Below, piece by piece: positions 1 through 41,980 of a stretch of 46,201 nt of DNA (its first letter is position 1; each line of letters starts with the position of its first letter). Location: positions 1-46,201 of the forward strand of contig JAXDLE010000169.1 in NCBI GenBank assembly GCA_034666725.1. Direction: 5' to 3'. The DNA is from Chloroflexota bacterium (GTDB taxonomy: Bacteria > Chloroflexota > Limnocylindria > Limnocylindrales > CSP1-4). Both the position numbers and the translations under genes were made by a program. The notes under the pieces are model-generated. The model made no database searches and was not told where the DNA came from. It saw only the letters and a program-made list of their open reading frames with translations.

Positions 1-819
1 TGGGCGCTGCGCGGCGGCGGCGGCAATTTCGGTGTCGTGACGCGCTTTCGGCTCGCCCTCAACCCGATCCACGAGGTTCTCCAGGGGATGCTGCTCATGC
101 CCGCGACGGCCGAAACTGTTCCTGCCGTATTGGCGCTGGGTCATGCCGCGCCAGAAGACCTGACGCTGATGCCCTACGTGATGGCCATTCCGCCCATGGA
201 CGAGGTCCCGCAGACCCATCACGGCAGGCTCGGGCTGTGGGTGGATACGCTCTGGGCTGGTCCCGATGCGTCCGGTGACGATGTGCTGGCGACGCTGCGC
301 GCGCTTGGACCCATCCTCATGGACACCATCGTCGCGAAGCCGTATCCACAGGTATATCCCGATCCGGGCGACGGCCCGCGCGGCGCATGGACGTCGAGCT
401 CGATCTTCCTCGACGACGTCGACGCCGGCGTGTTCGAGACGGTGCGCGACGTGCTGGCAGAAGGGCCGCCGGGCGACAACCTGGCCATCTTCCGCATCCT
501 TGGTGGTGCCGCCGGGCGAGTCGCCAACGACGCCACGGCCTTCGGTTGGCGTGACCATCGATACCTGCTCTGGCTCATCGCCGACCACGCGTCGTCAGAG
601 CCCGGAGCTCCCTATGCGAGCTGGGTGGCCAGTGCGAGGGCGGCGCTGGCAGACCGCGGCATGGGTGCTTTCGTCAGCTTCATGGCCGACGGTGGACCGG
701 AGAGCGTTGCCGCCGCATACCCAGCGGCGACGCTGCACCGTCTACGCGAGATAAAGCGCCGCTGGGATCCCGACAACCTATTTAGACATAACCACAACAT
801 TCTGCCCAGCAACGGGTGA
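1..819 (+). CDS. FAD-binding oxidoreductase, berberine-bridge-enzyme-like (5' truncated by window edge)
   Basis: Frame 1 is open from base 1 and reads WALRGGGGNFGVVTRF; C-terminal BBE motif AAYP..TLHRLREIKRRWDPDNLFRHNHNI. Confidence 0.88.
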   Translation, partial: WALRGGGGNFGVVTRFRLALNPIHEVLQGMLLMPATAETVPAVLALGHAAPEDLTLMPYVMAIPPMDEVPQTHHGRLGLWVDTLWAGPDASGDDVLATLRALGPILMDTIVAKPYPQVYPDPGDGPRGAWTSSSIFLDDVDAGVFETVRDVLAEGPPGDNLAIFRILGGAAGRVANDATAFGWRDHRYLLWLIADHASSEPGAPYASWVASARAALADRGMGAFVSFMADGGPESVAAAYPAATLHRLREIKRRWDPDNLFRHNHNILPSNG

Positions 820-899
820 CAGCGGCTTCCAACTGCCCCGCAAGTGGGGCATCATTGGCACTTCAGCCGTGTGGGACAGGTCATTAAGGGAGGAAACCG

Positions 900-1475
900 A
901 TGCTGCGTAAGAGATTGGTCGCCGCGCTGGGCTTCGCACTCGTTCTGGGCACCGTCATCGCCGCGCCGGCGGCGGCCGAAACGGTCATCGACCCGTGCAA
1001 CGGGCCCAGCGGCGGCACGTGTGGCTACTACGAGGTGTACGACAACGATCCGGGCATGAAGGGCGCCGTATGCAAGTACGAGACCGCCAGCTACGACCTC
1101 GACTGGATCTCGGTTCGGCCGCCCCTGATGCACGGGCCGTATTCGTACAAGACCAAGGTCCAGTGGAAGTTCAACATCCTCCGCTCGACCAACTTCGGAG
1201 CGTCATACACGGGCATCTACAACAGCTCGTGGCAGGTTGCCATGGCGAACGACGCCATCCCGGCCCGCGATGGCAGCGGCTTCAGTCGGCGCACCTGGTA
1301 CGCCGCCGATCCAAACCCGACTGGTTGGTTCAAGGTGCGCCTGCTGCTGTGGTGGAAGAATGGCGCCGGCAACGTGGTGGGAAAGATGAAAATTGAGTAC
1401 GACCACTATCAGGGCAAGTGGAACGGCAACACCGACAACCGGACTGGCTACGACTACTGCCTCCAGGACTGGTAG
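900..1475 (+). CDS. Secreted hypothetical protein (4 Cys, Trp/Tyr-rich); paralog of 5423-5989
   Basis: SD GGAGG upstream; signal peptide ending APAAA|ETV; clear similarity to 5423-5989. Confidence 0.85.
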   Translation: MLRKRLVAALGFALVLGTVIAAPAAAETVIDPCNGPSGGTCGYYEVYDNDPGMKGAVCKYETASYDLDWISVRPPLMHGPYSYKTKVQWKFNILRSTNFGASYTGIYNSSWQVAMANDAIPARDGSGFSRRTWYAADPNPTGWFKVRLLLWWKNGAGNVVGKMKIEYDHYQGKWNGNTDNRTGYDYCLQDW

Positions 1476-1523
1476 CCCGTCGGCTCCGTAAGCGGAGATT
1501 CGACCGAACATCACCTGTGGACC

Positions 1524-1552
1524 GAAGGTTTTGGCCAGGCCATGGCGTCTAA
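1524..1552 (+). promoter_or_regulatory. Candidate ECF-sigma promoter GAAGG-N17-CGTCTAA
   Basis: ECF-like -35/-10 (CGTC) spacing directly upstream of the operon that encodes the ECF sigma factor. Confidence 0.4.
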
Positions 1553-1582
1553 CGTGCACCACGCAGACGAGGTGCACGAGCA

Positions 1583-3760
1583 ATGTCCAATCGCGCAACG
1601 AAGCTACGGCCTGATGCGAGATGGCCACACCTCAGGCTAGCCGGGGCAATTGCCTGCGCCCTCGCCATCGCGTGCGGGGCGCCGACCAGCATTCCATCCC
1701 CATCGCCGAAGCCTTCGGCCACAGGTGCTCCCCCGGCAACTGCGTCGGTCGCGACGACCGCGCCGGCCTCGGGATCGCCGACTTCGTTGCCCCCGGTCGC
1801 AGACGTGCCGTTCTACAAGGGCGACGCTGCCCGAACCGGTGTGCACCCGGGGCCTGGTCCGCAGGTCGCTCCCCAAGAGGTCTGGAGCACCCAGATCGAC
1901 TGCGCCCTTGATAACCACACCGGGGTCGTTGGCAATGGCCTGTATGTCGTCGGATGTGACATCGGGGTGCTCGTCGCGCTCGACGTCCACAGCGGAACCG
2001 TCGTCTGGACGGCGGAGCTCGGCGGGCCGGTGGAGGGTTCTCCGGCCTTGGCCGATGGTGTCGTGTACGCCTCGGATTCGAGCGGCCACGTAACCGCGCT
2101 CGACCTCGATACGGGTGCCATGGTCGAGACACTCGACATCCCTGGGATGAGGCACCCAGTCGTCGTCGACGGGACACTCTACGTTGGCACCAAGGACGGC
2201 CGATTCCTAGGGATCAGCACCGGTGACCGGTCGATCAGCTGGACCTGGAACGCGCCGGCCGGCGTTACCGAAGTCTCCGGCACGGTCGTCGGCGACACTG
2301 CCTACATCGGTGCAGACGACGGCAATCTGTACGCCGTTGCCCTATCCAGCGCGACCGAACGCTGGCATTTCCACGTGATCTCCGGTCGAGTCAGCACTCC
2401 TGCAATCGGCTCGGATGCCATCTACGTTGCGGCTCTTCAGAACGGCGACACGCCATCCGGCGAGCTTTATGCCCTCGACCTAGCAACCGGCACCGAGCTC
2501 TGGCGATACCGGACGGCGACGGGCAATCAGATCGCCCCGCCCACCGTTGCCGACGGCATCGTCTATGCACCATCGCAAGACGGCGGCCTATACGCACTCG
2601 ACGGGCTATCGGGCGACGTTCTGTGGCAGACACCCACTGAGCGTACGGACGGGCAGACGCCCGCCCTCTCTGGCGGGTTCGTCTATCTGGCCGCAGATCG
2701 CACGGTTGGCGCATACGAAACGTCAGAGGGCACCCAGGCATGGCTTGTCGACCTTGGGGCGGACACGGACAGCAGCCCGGTGGTCACAGGCGGAACAGTC
2801 ATCGTCGGCGACAACTCCGGCCGCGTCCGCGCGTACGCCGAGCCGGCCCTGGCCGTCCTCTTCCCCGATGTGGCCAGCACCCCAGCCCCGTCGCAGTCAC
2901 CCGCAAGCGCGTTGGGCATGGACTTGGTCGAAACTTTCGAGTCGGACGACTACTCCTTTCCCAACGGGATTGACGTTGGGCCGGACGGCCGGATGTACAT
3001 CGTCAACGCGTTCGCCAACCAGATCCTCGTGCTGGATCGTGAAACAGGCGCGACCCTGGATCGCTGGGGCAGCCCGGGGTCCGAGGCGGGTCAGTTCAAC
3101 TTCATTCGCGATCCCAACGATCCGGGAAGCTCCATCGGCGGCCTCGTTGTCGCCGACGATGGCTCCGTCTACGTCACCGACACTGTCAATCGGCGCATTC
3201 AGGTGTTCACGTCTGACGGTGACTTCCTTCGCCAGTGGGGCCGCTTCGGTAGCGCCGACGGACAGTTCCTTGATCCCATAGACGTCGCTCTCGGGACGGA
3301 TGGGGACGTATACGTGGTGGACGATCAGCGCGACGACGTCCAGCGCTTCTCCCCGGACGGCGAGTTTGAGGCCGTATTCGGCGGGCATGGGACGGAGCCG
3401 GGCCAGATGAACTTCACCGGCGGCATCTGGGTCCAGCCTGACGGATCCATCTTGAACGCGGACTGGCAGAACTATCGGATTCAGGCGTTCGATGCGGACG
3501 GCGCGTCGCTGTGGACCTACGGGAGTCGCGGCTCTGGACCCGGTCAGTTCAACTTGCCGGGTGACATTGCCACCGATCTGGACGGCAATATATATGTGAC
3601 AGACGACACCAGGCTCGTCGCGCTCAGCCCCGATCGCCAGTTCATTGCTGCGCGCGAGTTCAACATCGTCAGCATGGGTTACATGATCCGAGATGGCACT
3701 CGGCTCTACATAACCCTGCCGTGGGACGATCAGATCCTGGTGCTCGAGGTGAGCGATTGA
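1583..3760 (+). CDS. Lipoprotein with N-terminal PQQ-binding-like (BamB-type) beta-propeller and C-terminal NHL-repeat propeller
   Basis: Lipobox-like LAIAC; P/S/T linker; YKGDAARTG then repeats such as SPALADGVVY..ALD..TG...W; NHL repeats GSADGQFLDPIDVA and GSGPGQFNLPGDIA. Confidence 0.88.
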   Translation: MSNRATKLRPDARWPHLRLAGAIACALAIACGAPTSIPSPSPKPSATGAPPATASVATTAPASGSPTSLPPVADVPFYKGDAARTGVHPGPGPQVAPQEVWSTQIDCALDNHTGVVGNGLYVVGCDIGVLVALDVHSGTVVWTAELGGPVEGSPALADGVVYASDSSGHVTALDLDTGAMVETLDIPGMRHPVVVDGTLYVGTKDGRFLGISTGDRSISWTWNAPAGVTEVSGTVVGDTAYIGADDGNLYAVALSSATERWHFHVISGRVSTPAIGSDAIYVAALQNGDTPSGELYALDLATGTELWRYRTATGNQIAPPTVADGIVYAPSQDGGLYALDGLSGDVLWQTPTERTDGQTPALSGGFVYLAADRTVGAYETSEGTQAWLVDLGADTDSSPVVTGGTVIVGDNSGRVRAYAEPALAVLFPDVASTPAPSQSPASALGMDLVETFESDDYSFPNGIDVGPDGRMYIVNAFANQILVLDRETGATLDRWGSPGSEAGQFNFIRDPNDPGSSIGGLVVADDGSVYVTDTVNRRIQVFTSDGDFLRQWGRFGSADGQFLDPIDVALGTDGDVYVVDDQRDDVQRFSPDGEFEAVFGGHGTEPGQMNFTGGIWVQPDGSILNADWQNYRIQAFDADGASLWTYGSRGSGPGQFNLPGDIATDLDGNIYVTDDTRLVALSPDRQFIAAREFNIVSMGYMIRDGTRLYITLPWDDQILVLEVSD

Positions 3761-4329
3761 CCCATGCCGGCGCGGGCTCGCATCGGGCCGCCACAGGCGC
3801 GGAGCTCGTTCGCGAGCTCCTCGCGACCTTCGCCGACCCTGACGCCTTCCGCGTTTGGTATGAAGATGCGGTCGTCCGTGTGTACCGGTATCTGTTTCCG
3901 CGCTGCGGAGGGGACGCGGGTTTGACGGAGGAAATCACTCAGCAGACGTTCATCTCTGCGATTGAGAACCGCTCTTCCTTCGCGGGACGTTCCGACTCCG
4001 TTACCTGGCTGTGCGCCATCGCCCGCAACAAGCTGGCCGACCACTACCGCCGTATGGATCGGATCGACCGACGCCATCTCCGCCTTGTGGTGAGAGAGAT
4101 CGACGTTGAAAGCGACCGCACGTCGGTCATCGAGGACAGAGACATGTTGATGTCCGCGCTGAGGAAGATGCCCGCGATGCAGCGCGCGGTACTCGTCCTC
4201 TGCTACCTCGACGATCTCTCGGTCGCCGAGGCCGCGGGGATCCTGGAGCGCAGCGAGTCAGCGACCGAGTCGCTGCTCACCCGAGCGCGCGCCAGGCTGC
4301 GCGAGATTCTGTCGGGAGAGATGCAGTGA
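3757..4329 (+). CDS. ECF-family RNA polymerase sigma factor
   Basis: Region 2 EEITQQTF..WLCAIARNKLADHYRR; region 4 LVLCYLDDLSVAEAAGIL..SLLTRARARLRE; likely TTG start overlapping upstream TGA, with GAGGTG SD. Confidence 0.92.
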   Translation: MTHAGAGSHRAATGAELVRELLATFADPDAFRVWYEDAVVRVYRYLFPRCGGDAGLTEEITQQTFISAIENRSSFAGRSDSVTWLCAIARNKLADHYRRMDRIDRRHLRLVVREIDVESDRTSVIEDRDMLMSALRKMPAMQRAVLVLCYLDDLSVAEAAGILERSESATESLLTRARARLREILSGEMQ

Positions 4330-5288
4330 ACGACGAATCCTTGCGGCGCCACCTACGCTCCGCCCTTGACACGCCGGCCATGCCGCGTGACGAGTTCGCT
4401 GCAGAGCTACATGACGATCTCGCTGCTCGTCTCCGGCTCGCGCCGCCGCGAGCCACCGCGGTGGCCAGTCATCGTCGACGTCCCCATCGGAGCACCTGGC
4501 TGCTTCTCGCGGCCACGCTGGCACTGCTCATAGCGCTCCTGGCAGGGCTGGCAGCGGCGGGTGCACTCCCAGACCTGTTGCCAAGGGGCGTGCCGGTCAT
4601 GCGGCAGATCCAGATTGATGGCCAGGTGCGCGTGGCGGTGAGGCCCGATCGGCCTCAGGCATTGAGTCCAGGTGGAACGCTCGACGGCTTCGATGTCAGG
4701 GTCGCCGAAGAGGTTGCGACGCGGCTCGGGGTCGATGCCGCACGTTCAACTCTGACAGTCCAGGAGATGCTCGGGCCAACGCCCGCCTGGCAACTGGCCC
4801 TGCCCAGCCAGTCCCTCCCACGAGGACGGGCCGACGAGTACATCGCGAGCACGCCGTACTACTTCTGGCCGCATTACATCGTCGTGGCCTCGGCATCCCC
4901 GGCGTCGTCAATCGCCGATCTAGCCGATGAAACTGTGTGCGCAGCGCAAGGCAGCGCGGGCCAGAGCTGGCTGAGCGAGATGGAGTCATTGGTTCCACGG
5001 GTGCTCGCCGACGAGAGCGCCTGCGAGGCCTCTGTCAGATCGGGCGAATCGCAGGCATTCGTGTCAGAGCGGCGGCTGCTGCCTGATTTTGCCTCTGACG
5101 GAGCTTTCCGCGCCCTGAGCGAACAGCCGGTCCTGCTCGAGCCACGGGCCATGCTTGTGCCGCGCTCGCTACCGGGCGCCCGCGAGTTCGTGGCCGAAAT
5201 AGACTTGCTTATCGAGGAAATGCGCGCGGACGGCACGATCAGCGAGTTGTCGAGGACCTGGTTCGGCGGGCAGGATCTCGCCCGCTAG
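4326..5288 (+). CDS. Putative anti-sigma membrane protein with C-terminal ABC amino-acid-type substrate-binding domain
   Basis: GTGA overlap with sigma stop; short cytoplasmic N-terminus, one TM (WLLLAATLALLIALLAGLAAAG), then SBP family-3 motifs LDGFDVRVAEEVATRLG and MRADGTISELSRTWFG. Confidence 0.75.
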   Translation: MNDESLRRHLRSALDTPAMPRDEFAAELHDDLAARLRLAPPRATAVASHRRRPHRSTWLLLAATLALLIALLAGLAAAGALPDLLPRGVPVMRQIQIDGQVRVAVRPDRPQALSPGGTLDGFDVRVAEEVATRLGVDAARSTLTVQEMLGPTPAWQLALPSQSLPRGRADEYIASTPYYFWPHYIVVASASPASSIADLADETVCAAQGSAGQSWLSEMESLVPRVLADESACEASVRSGESQAFVSERRLLPDFASDGAFRALSEQPVLLEPRAMLVPRSLPGAREFVAEIDLLIEEMRADGTISELSRTWFGGQDLAR

Positions 5289-5422
5289 GGGCCGGGCCGA
5301 AGCGGCCGCGTGCGAGAATTCGCGCCCTCGACCAAATAGGGCGTGTTACGGTCCAATGACTTGGGCCGTGTGCGCTGAGCCGTGAATTGGAAGCACGCGC
5401 TCACTAGACCAACGGAGGTCAA

Positions 5423-5989
5423 TTGAATAGACGATCCACGCGCGGCATCCTTGTCGTGCTTGCGTTCGCGCTGGGCTCACTCGTCGTCGCCGCCCCGGCC
5501 GCGGCCGAGACTGTGCTTGATCCTTGCACCGGAACGTGCGGCTCATGGGAGGTCGAAGACCAGGGACCAAGCGGTCCCGCGGGCGCGAATTGCCGCTACG
5601 AGACGGCGAGCCAGGAGCTCGACACCGTCTCCGTGCGACCACCGCTGATGTTCGGCACCTACACGGCTACCACCCGAGTCGAATGGCGCTTCAAGATCCG
5701 CCACTCGAATTCGTTCAGCGGGCACCGCACAACGATCTTCACCAGCTCATGGCAAGCTGCGATGGCTGACAACTCCTTCCCCGCCCGCGTCGGCCACGGC
5801 TTCTCGCGGCGATACTGGTCGGCATCAGAGAACCCAGTCGGCTACTACGCCGTCCGTGTCGAGATGCGCTGGTGGCACAGCGGCTCGGTCGAGGGCACCG
5901 CGCTCGTCCAGTACGACTGGTACAAGCTCCAGAACACGGGCTTCGGGGACGAGGTGAGCCCCGACCCGTACTGCTACGAGGTCGCCTGA
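5423..5989 (+). CDS. Secreted hypothetical protein (4 Cys); paralog of 900-1475
   Basis: TTG start with GGAGG SD; signal peptide APAAA|ETV; shared motifs DPC, GTCG, C.YETAS, SVRPPLM, SSWQ.AMA, GFSRR.W, WW, YC. Confidence 0.85.
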   Translation: MNRRSTRGILVVLAFALGSLVVAAPAAAETVLDPCTGTCGSWEVEDQGPSGPAGANCRYETASQELDTVSVRPPLMFGTYTATTRVEWRFKIRHSNSFSGHRTTIFTSSWQAAMADNSFPARVGHGFSRRYWSASENPVGYYAVRVEMRWWHSGSVEGTALVQYDWYKLQNTGFGDEVSPDPYCYEVA

Positions 5990-6005
5990 CCGTTAGTCCG
6001 GCAAT

Positions 6006-6046
6006 ATGGCCGGTCGTGCGAGAATCAACGTTGCACGACCGGCCAT
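6006..6046. repeat. Perfect 14-bp inverted repeat (hairpin) upstream of glyQS
   Basis: ATGGCCGGTCGTGC (6006-6019) pairs with GCACGACCGGCCAT (6033-6046); no U-tract. Confidence 0.7.
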
Positions 6047-6076
6047 GCCATGCGCCGGCACGCAAACGGAGATCCC

Positions 6077-7471
6077 GTGACCTCAAATCCTGACCCGACG
6101 CCCGCCGTCGCCAATCTCGACACCATCGTGTCGCTCGCCAAGCGGCGGGGCTTCGTGTTTCCTTCATCCGAGATCTACGGCGGCATCAACGCCGTGTGGG
6201 ACTACGGGCCTCTGGGCGTCGAGCTCAAGAACAACGTCAAACGTGCCTGGTGGCGCGCCATGGTCCAGGAGCGCGACGACATCGTCGGTCTCGACGCGGG
6301 CATCCTGATGCATCCCCAGGTCTGGGTGACGAGCGGCCATGTCGCGTCGTTCAGCGATCCGCTGGTCGAGTGCGCCGAGAACAGCCATCGCTTCCGGCTC
6401 GACGAGCTGCCCGGAACCGAGGGCTTGACCGAGACCGATAAGCGCGATCCGGGCATCGTCGAGCGGCTCAACCTGCGCTGCCCCACGGACGGCTCGAAGC
6501 TGGGTCCGCCGCGACGCTTCAACCTGATGTTCAAGACGCACATGGGCCCGATCGAGGAGGACTCGAACGCGGTCTACTTGCGCCCTGAGACCGCGCAGGG
6601 CTCCTACGTCAACTTCAAGAAAGTCCAGCAGTCATCGCGTAAGAAGCTGCCGTTCGGCATCGCCCAGATCGGCAAGAGCTTCCGCAACGAGATCTCGCCG
6701 GGCAACTTCGTATTCCGTATGCGCGAGTTTGAGCAGATGGAGATGCAGTACTTCGTGCCCCCCGCGGACGCGGCGCGCATCTTCGAGGAGTGGCTGCCCC
6801 GGCGCTGGGCTTGGTACACGGCCTACGGCGTCACCGAGGAGCGGCTGCGTTTCCGCGAGCACGCGCCCGACGAGCTTGCGCACTACGCCAAGAAGGCGAT
6901 CGACGTCGAGTACCGCTTCCCCTTTGGCTGGAAGGAACTCGAGGGCATCCACAATCGCGGCGACTGGGACCTGTCGCGTCACCAGAAGGAGAGCGGCGAG
7001 AACCTCGAGTACTTCGATCCGACGACGGAGACGAGCTTCATTCCGTGGATCGTCGAGACCGCAGGCGGCCCCGACCGCGCCGCATTCACTTTCCTGATCG
7101 ACGCGTATCGCGAGGAAGAGGTGCGCGGCGAGAAGCGTGTCTCATTGGCGCTTCACCCGCAGCTCGCGCCTTACAAGGTGGCGGTTCTGCCGCTGCTCAA
7201 GAAGCGGCCCGAGATCGTCGAGCTGTGCCACAAGCTGGTGAACGACCTGCGGCGCGACGTCATGGCCGTTTACGACGACACGGCGTCGATCGGCAAGCTG
7301 TATCGCCGCCAGGACGAGATCGGCACGCCGTGGTGCGTGACGGTCGACGTCGATTCGCTCGAGGACGGCGCGGTGACGGTGCGTGAGCGCGACACCATGA
7401 CCCAGGAGCGCGTGCCCGTCGAAGGCGTCAAACGGCTGATCCTGGACCGATTGGCCGCCTCGCTCCCGTGA
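6077..7471 (+). CDS. glyQS: Glycine--tRNA ligase (alpha2 type)
   Basis: [71 protein letters not shown]. Confidence 0.97.
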
Positions 7472-8139
7472 CTGAGATGCAGCCGCCCCTGCCACCGGCG
7501 GAGGAGGCGGCTCAAGGCGAGCAGCCCACAGAGCTGTCGGAGCGCGCTCGCGTCAACCTGGCCCAGCTCGCAAGCCTGCGCTGGGTGCCATTGACGGCTG
7601 CCTTGCTGTCCTTGGTGCTGTCAGTCGTGGCGATCTATACCTCGACGCAGCAGCCGTCGATCTCCTTGCTCATGCCCAGCCAGGTGCGCATTGCCCAGGG
7701 CCGATCATCGGGCGCCGCTTATCTCTACCTCCAACCAGCGTTCGTCAACACGGCGCAGAACAACAGGGTCGAGGTGATCAGCGGCATGGCTGTCCATGTT
7801 TCCGGTACGGACGCGACCACGCCCGGGACGGACTTCACCTGGACGCAGCAGCTGCGCCTCGTCGTTGATAGCTCGTCGGGACAGCTCACCTATCAGTACG
7901 TTGGTGACGCTGTCCCGCTTGTTGTCAGCCCGAACAACGCGGCTTCGCCCCTGGCGCTGTTCGAGGCGCCGCCCGGCTGGTTTTTCGCTGCCGGCAGCTA
8001 TCAGTTCAGCCTGACGGCCGATCGTGTTGTGGCCGACAGTCCATTAAGCGCCACATTCAGCGTGGATCTGACCGCGGACGACGTGGCGTTTCTTGATCAA
8101 CCTGGGCCGGACAAGTTCCTAACATTCAGCATTCGCTAA
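7468..8139 (+). CDS. Hypothetical membrane-anchored protein
   Basis: GTGA overlap with glyQS stop; single TM ([19 protein letters not shown]) followed by a beta-rich domain. Confidence 0.7.
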
Positions 8140-9022: not shown

Positions 9023-9041
9023 GCGCGGATGTTAGGGGACT

Positions 9042-9425
9042 TCACCTGTCTGGCTTCTTGCCGGGCTCCTTGACCGGCTCGTCGTCATCCTCGTCCAGGT
9101 GCAGCGCATGCAGCACGCGGTGGAGCACCGGAGCGAGCGTTACTCCGGCTGCGCCGATGATCACGACCCCACTGACGATTGCGTAGACGCCCGCGAAGAT
9201 CTTGGCCGAATCATCGGTCAGGATGTCCACCGGGCCCATCCCACCGGCGATCATGGCCGCGTTCAGAAAGGCGTCGACAAGCTTGAGGTGGCCGAACCAG
9301 GCGTAGCCGAGCATGCCCAGCAGGAGCCAGGCGCCCAGCAGTCCGAGCGTCAGCGCGAAGTGCTTCGCCAGGCGCACCAGGAAGGCGCGCCTGCTGATCA
9401 TCGGCTGACCGTAGCTCTCGTACAT
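9042..9425 (-). CDS. Small two-TM membrane protein with a K+-channel-pore-like segment
   Basis: TM1, then DAFLNAAMIAGGMGPV, then TM2 KIFAGVYAIVSGVVIIG; start taken at MYESYG. Confidence 0.7.
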   Translation of the reverse strand: MYESYGQPMISRRAFLVRLAKHFALTLGLLGAWLLLGMLGYAWFGHLKLVDAFLNAAMIAGGMGPVDILTDDSAKIFAGVYAIVSGVVIIGAAGVTLAPVLHRVLHALHLDEDDDEPVKEPGKKPDR

Positions 9426-9537
9426 CACGCCCTTGATGTTGGCAGGTCGGAAAGGGCTCCGCGCGTACAATCGGCCCTTCGAAAACACAGAAAGCCGAGA
9501 TGTTGCCGGCTTCCCAGCAGCCTCCGAGGTCGCCCGC

Positions 9538-12333
9538 ATGACTCAGACCCCCACCGTGCCTGCCGAGCGTGCCCATCAGGCCGCCAAGCGCTACATCTAT
9601 GCGTTCGGCGGCGGCCACGCCGAGGGCGATGCGAAGATGCGCGACGAGCTCGGTGGCAAGGGCGCGGGCCTGGCCGAGATGACCAATGCCGGCCTGCCGG
9701 TGCCCCCTGGCTTCACGATCACGACCGAGGCATGCAATGACTACTTCGCCGCGGGCGAGAAGCTGCCCGACGGTCTGTGGGACGACGTGCTCGCTGCCGT
9801 GGCAGACGTCGAGGAGGAGACCGGCAAGGGCCTCGGCAACGCCGCGAATCCGCTGCTGGTGAGCGTCCGGTCGGGCGCCAAGTTCTCGATGCCCGGCATG
9901 ATGGACACGGTCCTCAACCTGGGCCTCAACGCGGACACGCTTCAGGGCCTCGTGGCGTTGACAGGCAATGAGCGTTTCGGCTGGGACGCGTACCGGCGCT
10001 TCATCCAGATGTTCGGGCGCATCGTCATGGACGTCGACGGCGCGAAGTTCGAGCATGCCATCGACGCGGCCAAGGAGGCACGCGGAGTCAAGCAGGACAC
10101 AGAGCTCGATGCCGACGCCCTGCGCGAGCTGGTCGCCACATTCCTGAGCGTGGTCAAAGAGTCGGCCGGGCGCGAGTTCCCCACCGATCCACACGAGCAG
10201 CTCGACCTGGCCATCAAGGCCGTCTTCGCCTCGTGGTTCGGCAAGCGCGCGCATGACTATCGCGAGTACAACCACATCGCCCACGACCTCGGCACCGCGG
10301 TCAACGTCGTGACGATGGTCTTTGGCAACATGGGCGATGACTCCGGCACGGGTGTCGCCTTCACGCGCGACCCGAATACCGGCGAGAAGGTGCTCTTCGG
10401 CGAGTACCTGACCAACGCCCAGGGCGAGGACGTCGTCGCCGGCATCCGCACCCCACAGCCGATCAGCCAAATGAAGGACGAGCTGCCCGAGGCGTATGCC
10501 GAGTTCGAGCGGATCGGCCAGCGGCTCGAGAAGCACTACAAGGACGTCCAGGATCTCGAGTTCACGATCGAGCGCGGCCGCCTGTACATGCTCCAGACGC
10601 GCTCCGCAAAACGGACCGCCGCAGCCGCCGTCCGCATCGCTGCCGACCTCGTGGACGAGGGCATCATCACCGAGCGCGAGGCGCTCTCGAGGATCGAGCC
10701 CGCCCACGTCGACCAGCTGCTGCGCGACCAGTTCGACCCGACCGCGAAGAGCAGCGCGAAGAAGATCACCGCGGGCCTGAATGCATCGCCCGGCGCTGCC
10801 GTCGGCAAGGCCGTGTTCAACGCGGATCGCGCCTTCGAGATGGCGCAGCAGGGCGAGAAGGTCATCCTCGTCCGTATCGAAACGTCGCCCGACGACTTCC
10901 ACGGCATGGCCGCGGCACAGGGCGTGCTGACGGCGCGGGGTGGCGCGACGTCCCACGCAGCTGTCGTAGCGCGCCAGATCGGCAAGCCGTGCGTCGCCGG
11001 CTGCGCGGCGCTCATCATCGATTACGCCACGAAGAGCGCGCGGGTCAACGGCCTCGGGTTCTCTGAAGGGGAGTGGATCTCGCTCGACGGGACCACGGGC
11101 GAGGTATTCGTCGGCGCGCTGCCCACCACAGCGGCGCGCTTCGAAGATCAGGCCGAGCTGCAACAGGTGCTGACGTGGGCCGACAAGGTGCGCCGGCTCG
11201 AGGTGTGGACGAACGCCGACAAGCCCGAGGAAGCGGCGCAGGCCCGGCGCTACGGCGCACAGGGCATTGGCCTGTGCCGGACCGAGCACATGTTCCGCGA
11301 GGGGGAGCGGCTCGACATCGTGCGCGACGCGATCCTGGTCGCCTTCCAGGCCACTCGGGCGAAGGAGAAGACGGCCGCCGGCGGCACGCTGTCGGACGAC
11401 GACGCGGCCGCCGTCAAGAGCTTCGACGAGGCCATCGCCAAGCTCGAGGTGCTCCAGGAGGGTGACTTCTACGGCATCTTCGAGGCGATGGACGGGCTGC
11501 CCGTCGTCATCCGCCTCATCGACCCGCCGCTGCACGAATTCCTGCCGAACCACAGCGAGGTGCTGGTCGAGGTCACGAAGATGGAGGCAAAGGGCGTCGC
11601 CGCGAGTGATCCCGGATACGTGAAGGCCAAGGAGCTGCTGCGCGCGGTGGAGGCGCTGAAAGAACAGAACCCCATGCTTGGCCTGCGCGGCATCCGTCTC
11701 GGGCTGATGATCCCCGACCTCGTGAAGATGCAGACCCGGGCCATCCTCAACGCCGCGATCCGTCGCCAGAAGGCAGGCGGCCATCCTCACGCCGAGATCA
11801 TGATCCCGCTGGTGGGCCACGTGAACGAGCTCGCCGAGACGCGCAAGATCCTTGACGCCGAGGCGAAGGCCGTCCAGGAGGCCGCCGGCACGACCGTCGA
11901 CTTCATGTTCGGCACCATGATCGAGATCCCGCGCGGCGCCCTGACGGCCGACGAGATCGCCGAGCATGCCGAGTTCTTCAGCTTCGGCACCAACGACCTG
12001 ACCCAGATGGCGTTCGGCTATTCGCGCGACGATGCTGAGGGCGGCTTCCTCCTGAACTACGTTGAACGCGGCATCCTGCCGGCCAACCCATTCCAGACGC
12101 TCGACATCGTCGGCGTCGGTCAGCTGGTCCGCATTGCCGTCGAGAAAGGCCGCAAGGCACGGCCGGGCTTGAAGATCGGCATCTGCGGCGAGCACGGCGG
12201 CGACCCGGCGTCGATCGCGTTCTTCAACGAGGTCGGTCTCGACTACGTGTCGTGCTCACCGTTCCGCGTCCCCGTGGCGCGTCTGGCCGCGGCACAGGCG
12301 GCACTCTCCGGCGCAGCCGAAAGCGACAAATAA
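9538..12333 (+). CDS. ppdK: Pyruvate, phosphate dikinase
   Basis: LGGKGAGLAEM, SVRSGAKFSMPGMMDTVLNLG, GGATSHAAVVAR (catalytic His), FSFGTNDLTQM, GICGEHGG. Confidence 0.98.
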   Translation: MTQTPTVPAERAHQAAKRYIYAFGGGHAEGDAKMRDELGGKGAGLAEMTNAGLPVPPGFTITTEACNDYFAAGEKLPDGLWDDVLAAVADVEEETGKGLGNAANPLLVSVRSGAKFSMPGMMDTVLNLGLNADTLQGLVALTGNERFGWDAYRRFIQMFGRIVMDVDGAKFEHAIDAAKEARGVKQDTELDADALRELVATFLSVVKESAGREFPTDPHEQLDLAIKAVFASWFGKRAHDYREYNHIAHDLGTAVNVVTMVFGNMGDDSGTGVAFTRDPNTGEKVLFGEYLTNAQGEDVVAGIRTPQPISQMKDELPEAYAEFERIGQRLEKHYKDVQDLEFTIERGRLYMLQTRSAKRTAAAAVRIAADLVDEGIITEREALSRIEPAHVDQLLRDQFDPTAKSSAKKITAGLNASPGAAVGKAVFNADRAFEMAQQGEKVILVRIETSPDDFHGMAAAQGVLTARGGATSHAAVVARQIGKPCVAGCAALIIDYATKSARVNGLGFSEGEWISLDGTTGEVFVGALPTTAARFEDQAELQQVLTWADKVRRLEVWTNADKPEEAAQARRYGAQGIGLCRTEHMFREGERLDIVRDAILVAFQATRAKEKTAAGGTLSDDDAAAVKSFDEAIAKLEVLQEGDFYGIFEAMDGLPVVIRLIDPPLHEFLPNHSEVLVEVTKMEAKGVAASDPGYVKAKELLRAVEALKEQNPMLGLRGIRLGLMIPDLVKMQTRAILNAAIRRQKAGGHPHAEIMIPLVGHVNELAETRKILDAEAKAVQEAAGTTVDFMFGTMIEIPRGALTADEIAEHAEFFSFGTNDLTQMAFGYSRDDAEGGFLLNYVERGILPANPFQTLDIVGVGQLVRIAVEKGRKARPGLKIGICGEHGGDPASIAFFNEVGLDYVSCSPFRVPVARLAAAQAALSGAAESDK

Positions 12334-26019: not shown

Positions 26020-26108
26020 GGGCGAGTGGCGAAATTGGCAGACGCAAGGGCCTTAGGAGCCCTCGCCGCGAAAGCGGCGTGCCGGTTCGAATCCGGCCTC
26101 GCCCACCA
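26020..26108 (+). tRNA. tRNA-Leu (anticodon TAG), CCA encoded
   Basis: Acceptor GGGCGAG/CTCGCCC-A-CCA; anticodon arm AGGGC-CTTAGGA-GCCCT; long variable arm; GTTCGAATC T-loop. Confidence 0.96.
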
Positions 26109-41173: not shown

Positions 41174-41980
41174 ATGGCAGGCCCCTTGACCGCTGTAGAG
41201 CGGTTCTTCGAGCGCCTGTTCGAGCGACCCGCGGCGCGACTTTTCCAGGAGCCGGTCGAGCGCGTCCAGATCCAGCGCGGCATCGAACGCGCCATGGAGT
41301 CCGAACGTGTCGTACGCGAGCGGCGCGCCTTTGTGCCGTCGCACTACCGCGTGCTGCTGAACGCCGCCGATGCGGCCGCGCTCGATGGTGACATGGCCGC
41401 GCTGACAAGCGATCTGGCCGAGAGTGTGCGGATCTATGCGCGCGCCCATCAGTACGTGCTCGAGGCGCGGCCGTCGGTCGAGGTGATCGGCTCGAACGCG
41501 GTAACGACCGGCGACGTGCGCGTATACGCCGATCGGGCGCCGGCGCCTACGCTGAAGGCACCGACGCTTCCGCCGGGGCCAATGACGTCCCCCGCTGCCG
41601 ACTCAGACGATGGCCCCGATGTAGATAGCGATCCGGCGATAGCCCCCGGCGCCACTGCGGTGTTTGCCGCTCCGCGGCCGAACTCGCCGCGCGCACAGCT
41701 CGCCGTGCGCACGCCTGGTCAGCCGGTATCGCGTCTCAACGTAAGGCCGGGCACGATCCGGTTGGGGCGCGCCCTCGACAACGAGATCGTGCTCTCGGAC
41801 GACAAGGTGTCACGCCATCACGGACAGATCGGCATCCGCCTGGGCATGCTCGTGTACACCGATCTCAACAGCACCAACGGCTCGTACCTGAACGGTGCCC
41901 ATGTGACTGAGATCGCGCTCGGCCCGGGCGACGTGCTCCAGATCGGCAGCTCGACGGTCACGATCGAGCCGGCACCTTAG
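41174..41980 (+). CDS. FhaA-like DUF3662 + FHA domain protein
   Basis: VERFFERLFE...VPSHYRVLLN..D; FHA GRALDNEIVLSDDKVSRHH..DLNSTNGS. Confidence 0.9.
   Translation: MAGPLTAVERFFERLFERPAARLFQEPVERVQIQRGIERAMESERVVRERRAFVPSHYRVLLNAADAAALDGDMAALTSDLAESVRIYARAHQYVLEARPSVEVIGSNAVTTGDVRVYADRAPAPTLKAPTLPPGPMTSPAADSDDGPDVDSDPAIAPGATAVFAAPRPNSPRAQLAVRTPGQPVSRLNVRPGTIRLGRALDNEIVLSDDKVSRHHGQIGIRLGMLVYTDLNSTNGSYLNGAHVTEIALGPGDVLQIGSSTVTIEPAP

Follow-up and report, generated by a model that had tools for sequence, protein, structure and literature searches.

Positions 900-5989 of a 46,201-nucleotide stretch of DNA from a soil Chloroflexota bacterium, Limnocylindrales-like (the whole stretch that was analysed, hereafter the window) hold five open reading frames (ORFs), all on the + strand, and the question raised by this locus is whether the five genes form one sensing module or belong to more than one genetic unit. 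The arrangement, A1-B-C-D-A2, is symmetrical: two paralogous genes for small secreted proteins (A1, 900-1475, 191 amino acids (aa); A2, 5423-5989, 188 aa) flank the genes for a lipoprotein with two propellers (B, 1583-3760, 725 aa), a sigma factor of the extracytoplasmic function (ECF) type (C, 3757-4329, 190 aa) and a single-pass anti-sigma factor (D, 4326-5288, 320 aa), whose ectodomain is of the solute-binding protein (SBP) family SBP_bac_3. A sequence-only reading had taken all five for a self-contained module, of which the B-C-D trio stands and the flanking pair does not. With a probability of about 0.72, the region consists of two independent units, namely an autoregulated ECF operon (1523-5288, here called the cassette) and the old tandem paralogs A1 and A2, between which this operon was inserted.

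The window corresponds to contig C169 in an assembly of 187 contigs and 2.34 Mb (genome G000), 85.6% complete, and its named relatives are metagenome-assembled genomes (MAGs) of Chloroflexota / Candidatus Limnocylindrales. Bacterial signalling has ECF sigma/anti-sigma pairs as its third large pillar, but only few of the physical signals have been identified; a sensor with a solute-binding fold, carried by the anti-sigma factor itself, makes that signal directly testable, and a circuit with one promoter and one operon would be a compact orthogonal switch.

The five genes and the support for their order

The ORF list confirms that the five genes at 900-5989 are co-oriented. The overlaps that had been read between the middle three are likewise present: at 3757-3760 the stop codon of B (TGA, 3758-3760) overlaps the TTG start of C at 3757 (ATTGA), which is preceded by a Shine-Dalgarno-like run (GAGGTG), and at 4326-4329 (GTGA) the GTG start of D at 4326 overlaps the stop codon of C (TGA, 4327-4329) by 4 nt. 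An alternative start of C, GTG at 3721, would give a protein of 202 aa and has no Shine-Dalgarno-like sequence. Unlike the overlap in the window, the junction between the propeller and the sigma genes is a gap of 10-20 nt in homologous loci, while the sigma/anti-sigma overlap is 4 nt long in three, and 11 nt long in two, of the five independent homologous loci in which both genes were placed.

Both junctions of the cassette are bridged, with 0 differences, by independently built Logan contigs (800-1589 and 3548-6100) of run X1, possibly the source sample, and misassembly of the region was considered and rejected on this ground. A second soil study (X2) provides 0-mismatch pieces of genes 1, 2 and 5 (A1, B and A2) and no piece bridging a junction. 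The GC content is uniform across the region.

The paralog pair and the cassette occur separately in relatives

Gene order was compared by tblastn of the five proteins and of the flanking genes onto loci fetched from relatives, with flanks of 10-18 kb, and an order sample of 151 genomes was used for co-occurrence. A-family genes lie directly 5' of glyS (glycine--tRNA ligase), in the absence of B, C and D, in seven loci (L039, L040, L041, L042, L053, L054 and L055). The order is A then glyS in L040, L042, L053 (G101, same genus), L054 (G144) and L055 (G116); recO precedes the A family and glyS in four relatives (L040, L041, L042 and L055), and in L041 the full order is recO, an A1-like gene (63%), an A2-like gene (93% identical to A2 of the window) and glyS. 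In L039 the order is BBE oxidase, A1 (84%), a TerC membrane protein and glyS. The slot just 5' of glyS is the home of the A family and the only regularity seen for it.

The cassette has a different distribution. Full-length homologs of D are found in nine other genomes (G092, with two copies, G140, G138, G143, G120, G144, G127, G034 and G107), and in all nine a B homolog is next to D. An ECF sigma gene was found at the D loci of seven of them, six with a C homolog of 44-66% identity and G127 with an ECF sigma factor of 24% identity; in G034 and G107 a sigma factor is suggested only by a reading by eye of the translated stretch 5' of D, which resembles sigma region 4. These relatives have either the order B-C-D or C-D-B, in flanks that bear no relation to one another, and within the fetched 10-18 kb none of the nine genomes showed an A-family gene near the cassette. 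In the order sample, A is present in 4 genomes and ordinary SBP matches to D in 80, and both gene sets occur in G000 and G144 only, in the latter on different contigs. A scan of metagenome contigs with the single D protein returned 36 loci, none of which carries a cassette; all are generic SBPs (at most 30% identity) or else short fragments from the C-terminus. Among the loci examined, the adjacency of A genes and cassette is confined to the window. Since the A family is found at glyS without the cassette, and the cassette elsewhere without the A family, the five genes are not one module. The gene-neighbourhood search had been named beforehand as the check that could refute such a module, should the five genes never co-occur elsewhere, and as far as adjacency goes this is the outcome, with the two sets of G144 lying apart.

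How the two units came together is suggested by L041: it shows that the A1/A2 duplication predates the split of the species, and its A1-like and A2-like genes adjoin each other where the cassette is missing. In the window, the region upstream of A2 (5330-5422, + strand) aligns at the DNA level with the A1-A2 spacer of L041 and gives the right-hand boundary of the insertion. Because this region matches the spacer of a cassette-free locus, the extra segment begins directly behind the stop codon of A1 and ends at about 5330, a length of ~3.85 kb. On this comparison, the symmetry of the flanking paralogs appears to be an accident of insertion rather than design. The case is a caution for genome scanning, in that symmetric paralogs hinted at a designed module and comparative synteny led to an insertion between old tandem duplicates.

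A conserved promoter motif precedes the cassette

ECF promoters have a -35/-10 layout with CGT in the -10 element. A bipartite motif of this kind, CGAAGG-N17-CGTCTAA, is located at 1523-1552 (+ strand), 31 nt 5' of B, and a motif with the same fixed 17-nt spacing stands 5' of the first cassette gene in 7 loci (6 independent), whichever the gene order. The form in the window recurs 5' of B in L043/L044 and 5' of the sigma gene in L047; it is CGTAGG-N17-CGTCTAA 5' of B in L045, CGAAGG-N17-CGTCGAA 5' of B in L046 and CGAAGG-N17-CGTATAT 5' of the sigma gene in L048. The degenerate pattern CG[AT]AGG-N17-CGT[CA][TG]A has 9 matches in the 287 kb of the window and the fetched loci, 7 of which are the operon sites; the other two are a divergent second copy in the intergenic region of L047 and an antisense copy inside an FhaA-like gene of the window.

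In the whole 2.34-Mb assembly the strict pattern has 5 matches, against 1-4 per genome in ten order-2 Markov simulations, and the site in the window is the only one in intergenic DNA, the other four falling inside long ORFs. In its exact N17-CGTCTAA form the motif has a single occurrence in the assembly and 0 in each of the 10 simulations. The motif, as the expected signature, makes 1523-1552 a predicted autoregulatory ECF promoter, and expression of B is very probably driven by the sigma factor from this site, which supports the earlier suggestion that the sigma factor expresses the propeller lipoprotein. No motif, even in a loose form, was found 5' of A1 (900) or A2 (5423); G[AT]AGG-N17-CGTC and GAAGG-N16-18-CGTCNA match C169 only at 1524. 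The inclusion of the secreted twins in the sensing module is thus not supported: seven glyS loci lack the cassette, nine cassette genomes have no homolog of the twins within the fetched 10-18 kb, and neither twin has the motif upstream.

The antisense copy of the window (41523-41551, - strand, CGTAGG-N17-CGTATA) lies inside a gene with FhaA_N and FHA domains (41174-41980, + strand) and is probably due to chance. In L047 (genome G120) two back-to-back copies of the motif occupy the intergenic region 5' of the sigma gene (9023-9090); the second (9062-9090, + strand) faces a gene (9151-10158) whose secreted product is a beta-propeller protein of the PD40/TolB type (PF07676, 67.3 bits). An ABC ATPase gene (10383-11339) comes next, and the regulon of G120 may include a further propeller protein together with a transporter. 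A sigma-70 promoter scan of 600-6300 gave 0 sites.

The sigma factor and its predicted flytrap anti-sigma factor

C contains Sigma70_r2 (35.3 bits) and Sigma70_r4_2 (50.6 bits) and no other sigma regions, as in ECF (group 4) sigma factors, which have sigma-2 and sigma-4 alone in about 170-200 aa; it scores 72.5 bits on TIGR02937 (cut-off 42.9), and its profile matches SigL, SigK, SigW and SigE in the PDB. All the specific NCBIfam ECF models tried on C scored below their own cut-offs. Its co-encoding with D through a 4-nt overlap and the conserved bipartite promoter are, in silico, further marks of the ECF family.

The N-terminus of D, conserved over ~40 aa in 10 homologs (MxDERLxxxLR...EPRxEFxxxLHDxLAxxLGF), is followed by a basic stretch (HRRRPHRS) and, around residues 58-81, by a hydrophobic segment, from which a single-pass topology with the N-terminus inside was read. 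When the first 100 residues of 5 D homologs were compared with the Pfam anti-sigma families, no match was obtained even at E<=10, and no Cys and no zinc motif occur in residues 1-57 of D. A class I anti-sigma domain (ASD) or zinc-binding anti-sigma factor (ZAS), with its four-helix ASD of ~80-90 aa and HxxxCxxC motif, was considered for D and rejected on these two grounds. Short anti-sigma domains of class II/III (CnrY-CnrH type) may be a parallel, with a cytoplasmic segment of only ~40 aa, predicted in D to touch both sigma-2 and sigma-4, and no zinc motif; no sequence or profile similarity to this pair emerged, CnrH being only a weak PDB match of the sigma profile (4cxf, E 3.1e-10).

The structure of a complex between the sigma factor (7-row alignment) and residues 1-60 of D (10-row alignment) was predicted in 3 runs with 3 controls. 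The ipSAE was 0.85 in all three runs against 0.01 for the best control, the pLDDT (predicted local distance difference test) of the partner was 70, and at least 91% of the contacts were common between runs; of 80 solved complexes 58 attain the mark set by the tool, as do 2 of 110 mismatched pairs. The predicted contacts join sigma residues 25-70 and 127-185 (regions 2 and 4) to D residues 1-40. In the model the N-terminus of D is therefore predicted to clamp regions 2 and 4, a score that supports binding without showing it. Domains, conserved neighbourhood and predicted complex together sustain the earlier description of the middle genes as a unit of ECF sigma and membrane anti-sigma factor with an extracytoplasmic sensor of solute-binding type.

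The SBP_bac_3 domain (PF00497) covers residues 101-314 of D with 48 bits (cut-off 26.4), the match extending over both lobes. The D profile matches polar-amino-acid binding proteins in the PDB, best AncQR (4zv1, E 1.4e-28, positions 103-332), as well as cyclohexadienyl dehydratase relatives and the Mycobacterium tuberculosis GlnH (6h1u, E 3.5e-16), and the Atlas structure of D has a template modelling (TM) score of 0.58-0.61 to SBP_bac_3 clusters. Over 29-62% identity, the elements GFD, PYY-WP and E-x-R and a pair of Cys are invariant or nearly so. In classical amino-acid SBPs an Arg anchors the alpha-carboxylate and an Asp the alpha-amino group of the ligand. The variability of these columns, discussed below, makes it probable that the putative ligand of D is not a plain alpha-amino acid.

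D was also considered as an amino-acid SBP of an ABC transporter and rejected: its NCBIfam scores are 38 against 312 bits and 32.1 against 256 bits, its neighbours are a sigma factor and A2 rather than ABC genes, a cytoplasmic domain and a transmembrane segment replace the signal peptide, and the anchors vary. The D family comprises at least 66 protein clusters (alignment query), the closest homolog being P0109 (61%), and 18 of 401 genomes of the phylum have close homologs at E<=1e-15; two families of this Chloroflexota class account for 17 of these genomes. The members P0263-P0312 (~320-335 aa) have the anti-sigma segment at the N-terminus and yet bear, in a public source, the automatic name of "ABC-type amino acid transport substrate-binding protein". 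Such naming of the D family is a probable systematic misannotation, and the correction concerns at least 66 clusters, labelled, where named, as ABC-transporter binding proteins.

The propeller lipoprotein

B starts with a lipobox-like LAIAC (...ALAIAC|GAP), judged by eye, in keeping with a lipoprotein; the lipobox Cys is at the same place in 8 of the 9 listed B homologs, the 867-aa copy of L048 being without it. A Pro/Ser/Ala-rich tether follows, and then an N-terminal PQQ_2, BamB-like propeller (146.7 bits in Pfam) and a C-terminal propeller of NHL repeats. In the PDB the profile matches BamB (E ~1e-18) and the NHL domain of TRIM71 (E 1.7e-53). B shares PQQ_2 repeats with BamB and NHL repeats with NHL beta-propeller proteins; it carries a lipoprotein signal as well and, unlike BamB (a single 8-bladed propeller of ~390 aa, involved in outer-membrane assembly), has two propellers in one chain and is encoded in an ECF operon. 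Its identification as BamB was rejected on the scores (119.4 against a cut-off of 285.2 for TIGR03300, 95.6 against 423 for NF008351) and on its length of 725 aa with the added NHL propeller, and that as ScyF on a score far below the cut-off.

On the minus strand of L047 (G120) two overlapping ORFs (5006-6046 and 6043-7347) take the place of a single B homolog, one of 434 aa with the PQQ_2 propeller and one of 346 aa with the NHL propeller; either the two propellers can exist as separate genes or a frameshift has split the gene. In L048 and L049 the cassette is surrounded by two or three B paralogs of full length.

Known systems and a proposed mechanism

Three reports (PMC4183432, PMC5014341, PMC8844934) describe two comparable systems: in RsiV-SigV of Bacillus subtilis, RsiV binds lysozyme and the extracellular signal leads to site-1/site-2 proteolysis of the anti-sigma factor, and in RsiP-SigP of B. 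thuringiensis beta-lactams are sensed by PbpP and RsiP is proteolysed. RsiV and RsiP resemble D in being single-pass proteins that bind the sigma factor by their cytoplasmic N-terminus and have a folded domain outside the cell, co-transcribed with an ECF sigma factor from an autoregulated operon. Unlike RsiV, D has an SBP_bac_3 "Venus flytrap" as ectodomain and not the RsiV fold, and unlike both proteins it has an N-terminal domain of ~40 aa to which no Pfam anti-sigma model applies, and the dual-propeller lipoprotein as an obligate neighbour. The PF00497 fold serves as an extracytoplasmic sensor, and not in transport, on kinases and other receptors, among them BvgS-type kinases and GlnH-GlnX-PknG of M. 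tuberculosis, according to two reports (PMC8050422, PMC4810494); these two systems, as there described, signal through kinases, whereas in D the flytrap and the anti-sigma segment form one protein by direct fusion. In the available portion of the review PMC8050422, ECF sigma factors are named only in the introduction, and no SBP-ECF example is given. Searches of an open-access library gave no published anti-sigma/SBP fusion, and the words Chloroflexi, solute, PQQ, NHL and propeller are absent from the main text of the paper that reclassified the ECF groups (Casas-Pastor et al., 2021), whose supplements could list such a group.

The B-C-D unit would work like the known ligand-responsive ECF/anti-sigma pairs, and its sigma factor belongs to the ECF family. 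In the mechanism proposed here, D, inserted in the membrane by a single pass with its N-terminus inside, would hold the sigma factor at the membrane through short N-terminal helices on regions 2 and 4, and its external flytrap would be the sensor. A change in the flytrap (upon ligand binding, ligand loss or contact with B) would destabilise D, most likely leading to its removal by the kind of regulated proteolysis described for RsiV and RsiP. The freed sigma factor would then transcribe its own operon, so that B, C and D rise together in a positive feedback, with B as the only evident output in this assembly. Gating by a ligand, proteolysis and the role of B as output are what we infer. Beyond this, it is tentatively proposed, with somewhat less than an even chance of being right, that B-C-D represents an undescribed ECF class, in which a flytrap fused to a minimal anti-sigma segment would act as a one-protein receptor for small molecules and the obligate dual-propeller lipoprotein would be both target and co-receptor. 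If so, B might capture or process a polymer of the envelope or of the environment, a breakdown product of which is sensed by the flytrap, and many homologs named "ABC-type amino acid transport substrate-binding protein" would be transcriptional sensors.

Alternative explanations

Several points weigh against two units joined by insertion and against the regulation proposed for the cassette. Neither mobile-element genes nor repeats were found beside the cassette, and across 1400-5500 the only repeats are short and at chance level, with no insertion scars. Insertion at this locus, rather than repeated loss elsewhere, is preferred by parsimony, and losses elsewhere are another possible direction. 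Promoter and operon structure are in-silico predictions; since the assembly is 85.6% complete, regulon members on missing contigs would escape, and the sigma-D model score may partly draw on solved ECF/anti-sigma complexes. The columns of the alpha-carboxylate Arg and alpha-amino Asp anchors vary in ten aligned D homologs. Finally, a hairpin with a T-run was looked for between 5288 and 5423 and none was found, so that transcription begun at the ECF promoter may run on into A2 and glyS. This last point, together with the short distance of 134 nt on the same strand between D and A2, is what favours an accidental regulatory capture, in which transcription from the ECF promoter would continue through D into A2, perhaps into glyS, and A2 would now respond to the sigma factor. 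The 146-nt spacer, however, folds into stable GC-rich hairpins (minimum free energy (MFE) -65.6 kcal/mol, z -2.6), which in a high-GC organism could terminate transcription, A2 retains its ancestral upstream region, and an essential tRNA ligase under a stress sigma factor seems unlikely; capture is accordingly considered improbable. Far less credible still is the original idea that all five genes form one module and that the released sigma factor also switches on the twins from promoters of their own. Co-orientation, tight spacing, the extracytoplasmic or membrane-bound nature of all products but the sigma factor and the presence of both gene sets in G000 and G144 speak for it, but the adjacency is limited to the window, the seven A-glyS loci and the nine cassette genomes each hold one set without the other nearby, G144 keeps the two on different contigs, and to the lack of an ECF motif 5' of 900 and 5423 is added the conservation of the A2 upstream region in a cassette-free relative.

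Other alternatives concern the trio itself. B might be a co-sensor or negative regulator acting on the flytrap of D, like RseB on RseA or CseA in the sigE operon of Streptomyces, with the regulon located elsewhere. The adjacency of D and B in all nine other genomes, despite the changed order and a sigma factor of 24% identity (L049), would fit this role, and the second motif copy of G120, facing the PD40 propeller gene and the ABC transporter, suggests that targets beyond the operon can exist; against a regulon elsewhere in the present genome, the only strict motif in intergenic DNA is the operon's own, and the four in long ORFs are at the chance level of 1-4 per simulated genome. Such a role for B is less likely than not, though it is the strongest of the alternatives. 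Slightly less likely is a flytrap that no longer binds any ligand, D being then a generic anti-sigma factor of envelope stress that would be removed by proteolysis, with the SBP-like ectodomain as a folded plug or protease substrate. This would account for the variable Arg and Asp positions, but the two-lobe fold, GFD, PYY-WP, E-x-R and the invariant Cys pair are kept, pointing to a maintained pocket or hinge, and the anchors are lost also in SBP_bac_3 relatives with other ligands, such as cyclohexadienyl dehydratase.

The secreted A family

A1 and A2 are 48% identical (89/186, E 4e-55), both have a signal peptide ending in AAPAAAE, and neither has a Pfam or NCBIfam match at E<=0.01, in agreement with the initial view of the outer genes as paralogs of an unrecognised secreted family. 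Ten distant members scanned gave 0 families at the cut-off. In the alignment the members share a signal peptide ending in AxA and four conserved Cys (C33, C41, C58 and C187), and are putatively disulfide-bonded. The AlphaFold2 (AF2) model of A1 (pLDDT 86.4, predicted TM score (pTM) 0.80) is all-beta; a Foldseek search with it against the PDB found nothing at E<=0.001, with TM scores of at most 0.40, its best VIA-align Z score of 7.6, on immunoglobulin (Ig)/fibronectin type III (FnIII)-like sandwiches, is inside the background stated for the tool, and its structure neighbours in the Atlas are without names. A functional reading from the fold matches (RbmA, GH2 Ig-like domains, FnIII, GM2 activator) was rejected, only generic beta-sandwich rows being concerned. 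According to the model, the A family is an uncharacterised secreted protein with a generic Ig/FnIII-like beta-sandwich.

A1 matches 107 clusters at 90% identity, and a profile search of the family gives 631 representatives (at 50% identity) at E<=0.001, with 302 at 1e-10 or better and 40 at 1e-30 or better. With 631 representative clusters and no curated model, the family is a candidate for a new domain-of-unknown-function entry. Most representatives have ~190 aa and some are two-domain fusions of ~350 aa; P0154, P0155, P0181, P0189, P0192, P0219, P0223 and P0240 are tandem beta-sandwich fusions of this length, with the profile match in two stretches. Two distant paralogs (~30% identity, E ~1e-7) are encoded elsewhere in G000 (C173:8761-9330 and C86:356-886), and neither adjoins glyS or the cassette.

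As compared with L041, whose glyS is 91.5% identical, A2 of the window is 93% identical and A1 only 63%, and an 84% A1 is found in L039; given the values against L041, A1 appears to have undergone faster evolution or exchange. The slot 5' of glyS is variable also in its other genes, being recO-A-A in L041 (7124-9359), recO-A in L040, L042 and L055, BBE oxidase-A1-TerC in L039 (5702-6628) and BBE oxidase-A1-cassette-A2 in the window (37-1475).

Other features of the window

A2 has a TTG start after GGAGG. The next gene is glyS (6050-7471, + strand; 626 bits on NF003211, cut-off 312), whose position downstream of the A family is conserved. Directly after the A1 stop, a stem-loop at 1479-1504 (+ strand) is present in both the MFE and the centroid structures and is a possible weak terminator; the stability of the 116-nt region that holds it does not exceed that of shuffled sequences (z -0.83). 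Four terminator-like matches were set aside, as they lie inside D or glyS. The sole Rfam/ARAGORN match in the 46-kb window is a tRNA-Leu (anticodon TAG) at 26020-26108. The stop of glyS overlaps by 4 nt a gene (7468-8139) for a predicted membrane protein of 223 aa, which matches no Pfam or NCBIfam family and is kept 3' of glyS in L040 and L055 (55-60% identity).

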